A DNA stretch of 40,137 nt from Escherichia phage phiHAO1-1. The position numbers were made by a program, and so were the translations under genes. A model generated the notes under the pieces. The model was not told the DNA's origin and ran no database searches. It saw only the letters and a list, made by a program, of their open reading frames with translations. The stretch is from the sequence record PP079211.1; one strand, 5' to 3'. This document shows positions 21,383 to 22,557 of the stretch, one piece after another. Position 1 is the first letter of the stretch. Each line of letters opens with the position of its first letter.

Positions 21383-22426
21383 ATGGCAAACGTTCCGGGT
21401 CAGAAAATTGGTACAGACCAAGGTAAAGGCAAATCCAGTTCCGACGCTCTAGCGTTGTTCCTGAAGGTATTTGCTGGCGAAGTCCTGACCGCATTCACTC
21501 GCCGCTCTGTAACGGCTGACAAGCATATTGTCCGAACCATTCAGAACGGTAAGTCTGCTCAGTTCCCGGTCATGGGTCGCACCTCTGGTGTGTATCTGGC
21601 TCCGGGTGAGCGACTGTCCGATAAGCGTAAAGGTATCAAACATACCGAGAAAGTGATTACCATTGATGGTCTGCTGACTGCCGATGTGATGATTTTCGAC
21701 ATTGAAGACGCGATGAACCACTATGACGTGGCTGGCGAGTATTCCAACCAGTTGGGGGAAGCTCTGGCTATCGCTGCTGATGGTGCGGTTCTGGCTGAAA
21801 TGGCTAACCTGTGTAACCTCCCAGCTGCATCCAACGAGAACATCGCTGGTCTTGGTACTGCTTCCGTACTGCAAGTTGGTAAGAAAGCTGACCTCGACAC
21901 CCCGGCTAAACTGGGCGAAGCAATCATCGGTCAACTGACCATTGCTCGTGCGAAGCTGACAGCCAACTACGTTCCTGCTGGCGACCGTTACTTCTACACC
22001 ACGCCGGACAACTACTCTGCAATCCTCGCGGCTCTGATGCCTAACGCTGCTAACTATGCTGCGCTGATTGACCCAGAGACTGGTAACATCCGTAACGTGA
22101 TGGGCTTCGTTGTTGTTGAAGTTCCGCATCTGGTACAGGGTGGTGCTGGTGAGACCCGTGGTGAAGACGGTATCACTATCGCTTCAGGTCAGAAACACGC
22201 ATTCCCGGCGGCTACTACTGGCGACGTTAAAGTTGCTATTGACAACGTTGTGGGTCTGTTCTCTCACCGCTCTGCTGTGGGTACTGTTAAGCTGCGTGAC
22301 TTGGCGCTGGAACGTGACCGCGACGTAGATGCTCAGGGTGACCTGATTGTTGGTAAGTACGCTATGGGTCACGGCGGTCTGCGTCCTGAAGCGGCTGGCG
22401 CACTGGTTTTCAGCCCAGCGGTGTAA
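21383..22426 (+). CDS. Major capsid protein 10A (T7 gp10A homolog)
   Basis: 347 aa; high colinear similarity to T7 gp10A (LALFLKVF.GEVLTAF, HTEKVITIDGLLTADV, ALMPNAANYAALIDPE, GLRPEAAGA); strong RBS. Confidence 0.98.
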   Translation: MANVPGQKIGTDQGKGKSSSDALALFLKVFAGEVLTAFTRRSVTADKHIVRTIQNGKSAQFPVMGRTSGVYLAPGERLSDKRKGIKHTEKVITIDGLLTADVMIFDIEDAMNHYDVAGEYSNQLGEALAIAADGAVLAEMANLCNLPAASNENIAGLGTASVLQVGKKADLDTPAKLGEAIIGQLTIARAKLTANYVPAGDRYFYTTPDNYSAILAALMPNAANYAALIDPETGNIRNVMGFVVVEVPHLVQGGAGETRGEDGITIASGQKHAFPAATTGDVKVAIDNVVGLFSHRSAVGTVKLRDLALERDRDVDAQGDLIVGKYAMGHGGLRPEAAGALVFSPAV

Positions 22427-22557
22427 GTACATTTAGCCAACCTAACATCGCTACAGTAGCGGCTGCACCTGAAGAGGAGACTCTAACTCCTCAACAGAAA
22501 GCTGCGCGTACTCGTGCTGCGAACAGGGCCGCTAAACTGGCTGAGTCCAACAACTAA
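21383..22557 (+). CDS. Minor capsid protein 10B made by -1 ribosomal frameshift
   Basis: GGTTTTC at 22405-22411 five codons before the 10A stop; the -1 frame stays open for 48 more codons to TAA at 22555-22557, as for T7 10B. Confidence 0.6.

Follow-up and report, generated by a model that had tools for sequence, protein, structure and literature searches.

Programmed -1 frameshifting in gene 10 of bacteriophage T7, which yields the capsid proteins 10A and 10B, was described by Condron, Atkins and Gesteland in 1991 and has since been summarized (PMC5009743, PMC1635266). The T7 frameshift rate is about 10% (PMC1635266), and an earlier note on the DNA analyzed here, made from its letters alone (the sequence-only reading), had given this same figure for T7 ribosomes. 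The G_GU of T7 gene 10 is listed among non-canonical X_XX sites, and the T7 shift is reported to depend on a CCCC that lies >200 nt downstream, in the terminator, a requirement whose reason is unexplained (PMC5009743). In phage K1F, a -1 frameshift adds 44 triplets to gene10, and fusion of GFP to the end of gene10b gave stable fluorescent phage (PMC6277420). Adhesins have also been displayed through the K1F 10B locus on a subset of capsid subunits (PMC13370021). Records of K1F relatives treat the feature in different ways. The EcoDS1 record notes that gp10A 'may be translated via slippery sequence' and carries a misc_feature called 'region of similarity to gp10B', and the Penshu1 and CR44b records hold a joined CDS for a -1 frameshifted minor capsid protein.

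We analyzed a stretch of 40,137 nt (record PP079211.1, Escherichia phage phiHAO1-1), referred to below as the window. The phage is a Kayfunavirus, a K1F relative in the T7 subfamily Studiervirinae. Around the frameshift site the window shares 99.6% identity with Escherichia phage phiHAO2-2 and 95–97% identity with dozens of other Kayfunavirus genomes. The feature described here is already known: it is the 10A/10B frameshift of T7 gene 10, in the version reported for the K1F genus.

Organization of the gene 10 locus

The following elements of the locus, all on the + strand, are needed for the description below.

21258–21280, + strand: phage RNA polymerase promoter (ACTAAACTATCACTATAGGGAGA), read from sequence, upstream of gene 10
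21383–22426, + strand: open reading frame of gene 10A, major capsid protein, 347 aa, zero frame
22405–22411, + strand: slippery heptamer G GTT TTC, with Val GUU for the P site and Phe UUC for the A site
22411–22557, + strand: 10B-specific extension in -1 frame translation, 48 codons (QPSGV...AKLAESNN) and TAA
22560–22601, + strand: Tphi-like intrinsic terminator, with a stem of 17 pairs (22560–22597) followed by a U-run

The promoter agrees with the K1F promoter consensus quoted at the homologous place in the annotation of phage ASO2B. The 10A product (computed mass 36.3 kDa) is 71% identical to the T7 capsid protein and matches the Pfam family Gp10A-like (PF21703, E = 1.5e-104) over residues 60–342. 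It also matches solved capsid structures, including 9vvq (E = 3e-213) and T7 10A in 2xvr (E = 7e-146), and in none of the solved structures matched is a 10B tail present. Its homologue is labeled "major capsid protein" in the records of phiHAO2-2, K1F and EcoDS1. Elsewhere in GenBank the 347-aa 10A protein is labeled 'minor capsid protein' or 'minor capsid protein 10B', or else 'scaffold protein' or 'capsid and scaffold protein'; 10A is mislabeled in PQ133619, OM867676 and the PRF-SP/STP-SP series, and the 347-aa chain of PDB 9vvq bears the same minor-capsid label. These mislabels are annotation errors spread through similarity searches.

The final zero-frame codons of 10A are CTG GTT TTC AGC CCA GCG GTG TAA, with the TAA at 22424–22426. 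The first G of GGTTTTC is a third codon base, which places the heptamer in phase, and TTC is the fifth codon ahead of the TAA. On the + strand of the window this is the single copy of GGTTTTC; it is in phase, and the capsid ORF ends 7 codons from it. Translation of the -1 frame from 22405 gives GFQPSGVSTFSQPNIATVAAAPEEETLTPQQKAARTRAANRAAKLAESNN up to a stop at 22555–22557, and the frame is already open from 22390. The full 10B protein would correspond to join(21383..22411, 22411..22557), with 391 aa, a mass of 40.9 kDa and 48 residues beyond Phe343. The gain of 391 − 347 residues equals exactly the 44 triplets added in K1F. According to the sequence-only reading, GGTTTTC lay five codons before the 10A stop, the -1 frame stayed open for 48 codons to 22557, and the extension ended directly ahead of a Tphi-like terminator. 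Each of these statements proved exact, with the heptamer at 22405–22411 in the reading phase that we checked, the stop codon at 22555–22557 and the terminator stem starting at 22560.

The 48-residue tail is rich in Ala, Thr and Gln and mildly basic, and the shift junction falls within a large tryptic peptide, ...PEAAGALVFQPSGVSTF.... The tail matches phrog_12582 ('head protein', E = 4e-10), one of two PHROG 'head protein' families matched in all. Pfam finds no Big_2 domain in the tail of the window, whereas the T3 tail does match Big_2. There is no ATG, GTG or TTG in frame within the -1 ORF, and the ORF therefore cannot be a separate gene.

Two small ORFs lie further downstream. Between the terminator and gene 11 is a 29-aa hydrophobic ORF (MFLIYTGLALFVLFWAYLLPSSPSSPYDH; 22616–22705, + strand) with the Shine-Dalgarno sequence AAGGAGG at 22604–22610. 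Its protein-level variants occupy the same place in eight other Kayfunavirus loci (L001, L366, L011, L016, L367, L013, L021 and L368). The records of T7, K1F and phiHAO2-2 show no gene at this place, and that of Penshu1 has a hypothetical protein there; the 29-aa product may be a small membrane peptide. A 75-aa ORF (23283–23510, + strand) is inserted between genes 11 and 12 of the window. It is also found in EcoDS1 (as 'RNA-binding protein'), ASO2B and P7124 and is absent from K1F, where gene 12 directly follows gene 11. The two genes as annotated in phiHAO2-2 likewise abut, with no separate ORF annotated.

Coding constraint on the -1 frame tail

An open -1 frame is not in itself significant as evidence. 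From base composition, the probability of 43 codons without a stop is 0.11–0.16, and in 16 of the 36 long + strand ORFs of the window the -1 frame stays free of stops for 43 codons or more after the ORF ends, in most cases because the following gene occupies that frame. What lies beyond chance is the combination of a heptamer that is unique and in phase with a tail that is homologous and conserved as coding sequence.

The comparison set consisted of 78 IMG/VR loci found with the capsid protein, 36 found with the tail peptide, and GenBank records. In this set the tail occurs in 31 distinct nucleotide versions, drawn from Kayfunavirus, the T7 group and other lineages, all of which begin at an in-phase GGTTTTC. 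Tail length ranges from 47 to 59 codons across these versions, and indels occur only in multiples of three. Within the 14-codon core LTPxQKAARTRAAN, variable columns number 3, 1 and 14 at the first, second and third codon positions, respectively. When this block is read in the other two frames, stops appear in 30 and 15 of the 31 sequences. The pooled pN/pS of the tail is 0.46 and cross-genus dN/dS is 0.2–0.44; in close Kayfunavirus pairs, which differ by few substitutions, dN/dS is 0.43–0.83 and thus not far below 1. Taken together, these substitution patterns indicate that the tail evolves as coding sequence, under purifying selection in the -1 frame.

The heptamer and the extension go together across about 80 related loci. 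An in-phase G GTT TTY is followed by an extension of at least 41 codons at every locus bar one, which has a 1-nt deletion, and every locus whose capsid identity is 82% or more keeps the heptamer. Its first base does vary, with A GTT TTC in L103 and C GTT TTC in L110, L029 and L030. Since some T7-group and other loci carry these forms, the first base is not essential. Where relatives encode the same Leu-Val-Phe ahead of -1 frames that are merely short and unrelated, the codons are CTG GTC TTC, CTG GTA TTC or TTG GTC TTC, and the GTC and GTA codons of these extension-less relatives interrupt the U-run. Because such relatives use GTC or GTA, the protein does not force the use of GTT. The heptamer is retained where a tail exists to be reached.

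Some natural variants seem to have lost the extension. In vB_EcoP_F (L011/L093/L280), a one-base deletion at the 10A stop changes TAA to TAG and leaves the tail in the +1 frame, so that a -1 shift can no longer reach it. In L120, an in-frame TAG lies within the tail. These two apparent natural 10B knock-outs are either sequencing errors or a sign of dispensability. Given that variants losing the extension exist, selection on it is not absolute, and 10B is probably a dispensable accessory product.

Alternative tails behind the same slip site

Kayfunavirus loci L015–L026, L075, L079 and L080 (about 2520–2810 in each) carry a different -1 extension of ∼87 codons after the same G GTT TTC. Their capsid genes are 82–97% identical to that of the window. 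The ∼87-codon tail, in which the motif ...TDWSLL...YSRRTNSLYFKA... occurs, has a match to phrog_7473 (function unknown, E = 1e-35) and none to Pfam. In L016 (about 2525–2810) the long-type extension is shortened and runs in frame into the downstream small hydrophobic ORF (...TPEWFFLLKVRMIMFYLLTALGLFVSFWAIILLTGPCSPYDR), which suggests that a deletion took out the rest of the domain together with the terminator.

Two phages from freshwater metagenomes, L041 (1248–2681) and L057, have 74% capsid identity and G GTT TTT at the homologous site. Here the -1 frame is open for 470 codons, starting with a Big_2 Ig-like domain and continuing for ∼390 residues without a Pfam match. A GTG 12 nt past the 10A stop could start this extension as a separate 466-aa gene. 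We considered a GDSL/SGNH hydrolase in the 470-codon extension of L041 and rejected it, as Pfam did not confirm it and Big_2 was the only match.

Behind a fixed slip site, tails thus seem to be traded as cassettes. In a reading that is possible, though on balance doubtful, the heptamer would act as a fixed docking point behind which unrelated tails (the short T7-like, phrog_7473 and Big_2 types) swap by recombination.

Candidate stimulatory elements

We looked for elements that might stimulate the shift on either side of the heptamer. Upstream, inspection by eye of 22385–22404 (CCTGAAGCGGCTGGCGCACT) found no GGAG, AGGA or GAGG and hence no Shine-Dalgarno-like element. Downstream, the terminator folds with a dG of -25.2 kcal/mol (z = -5.1) and aligns with T7 Tphi. 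The 5' arm of its stem contains CCCC at 22564–22567, about 150 nt from the slip site; the relative L013 has only CCC. A GGGG partner for this CCCC was rejected, as the GGGGG found ∼20 nt after the T7 site is unconserved in the T7 group and absent from the window.

Minimum free energy folds of the region 3' of the heptamer gave one further element.

22417–22452, + strand: candidate stimulatory hairpin, with an 8-bp stem (22417–22424/22445–22452) and a 20-nt loop

This hairpin begins 5 nt 3' of the heptamer, and its 5' arm takes in the first base of the 10A stop codon. Across 13 different Kayfunavirus sequences, pairing holds in 99% of cells, with one compensatory change. The varying pair is U:A in the window, C:G in most relatives and U:G in others, and K1F has one mismatch. 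The helix is consistent with these data, but the covariation does not exceed that of shuffled controls, 177 of 500 shuffles reaching the same level, and we do not claim the hairpin as an established stimulator. A scan of the metagenome_contigs and viral_contigs collections with the 14-mer pattern TTAGCCAACCTAAC found no new hairpin variant; nearly all of its matches were chance ones, the pattern being too short for collections that large. We also compared folds between the window, T7, the L013 group, the long-extension Kayfunavirus and T3, and found no shared downstream structure among them. The folds 3' of the site differ by lineage, as do their distances, and most z-scores are weak.

The local hairpin and the terminator CCCC are the inferred candidates for stimulators acting here. 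It is possible, though on balance doubtful, that the hairpin stimulates the shift locally in the short-tail Kayfunavirus and has been kept in the lineage of the window through the compensatory change from C:G to U:A. If this were true, it would provide a simpler stimulator, unlike the unexplained long-range terminator requirement reported for T7, and its cost would be a change from Ala to Val at the end of 10A and from Val to Ile in 10B.

Proposed mechanism and rival explanations

We propose, with high confidence, that the late mRNA of capsid gene 10 in this K1F-like phage undergoes a programmed -1 ribosomal frameshift. A ribosome on the heptamer would have the Val tRNA at GUU (P site) and the Phe tRNA at UUC (A site), and in a minority of ribosomes both tRNAs would slip back one base in tandem, in the way described for T7, onto GGU and UUU. 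The slipped ribosomes would go on to read CAG CCC AGC ..., skip the 10A stop codon at 22424–22426 and terminate at 22555–22557. The outcome would be 10A (347 aa) together with a minor amount of 10B (391 aa), with residues 1–343 common to both. The 10B tail would be taken into a fraction of capsid positions and be surface-exposed. The K1F g10b fusions lend indirect support to a larger capsid species of this kind. We infer that this phage behaves like K1F by analogy with that phage; the closest record, phiHAO2-2 (99.6%), annotates 10A only. That a conserved, T7-like -1 frameshift yields 10B had been asserted in the sequence-only reading, and it finds support in the comparative tests of the heptamer, tail homology, selection and co-occurrence and in the lack of a start codon.

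The same locus could be read as holding a chance or relic frame in the spacer between 10A and the terminator, one that is left untranslated, with the heptamer being there only to encode Leu-Val-Phe. Frames open over such a length are not rare, as the base-composition estimate and the 16 of 36 ORFs show, many close records annotate 10A only, and natural disruptions of the tail exist. However, such a frame does not sit well with variation concentrated at third positions (3/1/14) around an amino-acid core that is invariant across genera, with tail indels that keep the frame, or with the GTC and GTA codons of the extension-less L-V-F relatives. Moreover, fusions to the homologous ORF of K1F are displayed on virions (PMC6277420, PMC13370021). 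We hold an untranslated frame to be extremely unlikely.

The remaining alternatives accept a translated tail and differ in how it would be reached. If the phage RNA polymerase slipped on the T-run and dropped one base from the mRNA, the protein and the comparative signal would be the same as with a ribosomal shift, and the site does have a T4 run. A run of four T residues is nevertheless short for a polymerase to slip on productively. In addition, frameshifting at the identical T7 site is treated as ribosomal and depends on 3' mRNA elements (PMC5009743), and we judge the transcriptional route very unlikely. For a tail that is initiated independently as a small protein of its own, or a 10A lengthened by stop-codon readthrough, we found no supporting point. 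Independent initiation is opposed by a -1 ORF devoid of the three start codons listed above, and readthrough by a zero frame that adds just 10 residues past the TAA (VHLANLTSLQ, then a stop) and in which the core has stops in relatives; we regard both routes as scarcely credible. A ribosomal -1 frameshift is the reading that we retain in what follows.

Implications for annotation and use

The record of phiHAO2-2 and many Kayfunavirus records give the 347-aa product alone, and the joined CDS, join(21383..22411, 22411..22557), should be added to the annotation. The C-terminus of 10B is a low-copy display site for foreign proteins on therapeutic phages of the K1F type, and the phage studied here offers the same handle. 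As to the recoding mechanism, nothing is new here except the candidate hairpin, which is testable.

Comparison with known frameshift systems

When set against the canonical dnaX and IS cassettes, the site differs in being G_GU_UUC rather than X_XXY_YYZ, so that full re-pairing of the P-site codon after a -1 shift is not possible, and in having no visible Shine-Dalgarno-like element in the 20 nt upstream that we inspected by eye. The 10B protein of T3 resembles that proposed here: the homologous capsid gene has a -1 frameshift at its 3' end, and the product is a minor capsid protein with a C-terminal extension. T3 differs in slipping at C CCA AAG, at a Lys codon, and in having an 85-codon extension that forms a Big_2 Ig-like domain. 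No in-phase A_AAG of the T3 type is found in the overlap of the window.

The likeness to T7 is much closer, and the statement in the sequence-only reading that the layout mirrors T7 gene 10 is borne out by the same heptamer and codon context, a homologous tail and a Tphi-like terminator. Specifically, the identical G GTT TTC lies in homologous ...G-A-x-V-F codons, a few codons before the 10A stop, in a capsid gene of the same Pfam family. T7 10B and the window share the tail core EETLTP.Q.AARTRAAN, and the tail stop lies just ahead of a Tphi-type terminator with CCCC. The differences from T7 concern the tail, which has 48 residues in the window and 56 in T7 and an unrelated first half (QPSGVSTFSQPNIATVAAAP in the window, QSGVMLGVASTVAASPEEASVTST in T7), and the region 3' of the site. 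There the terminator is about 150 nt away in the window and over 200 nt away in T7, the G-run of T7 is missing from the window, and the local predicted hairpin is not the same.

The gene10b of K1F, the type species of Kayfunavirus, shares with the window the heptamer and the 44 added triplets. In K1F, EcoDS1, Penshu1 and CR44b the tail is 96–98% identical to that of the window. Differences from the genus are confined to point changes, such as an Ile in the tail of the window for Val, and a 10A that ends in Val in the window as compared with Ala, Met or Glu in relatives.
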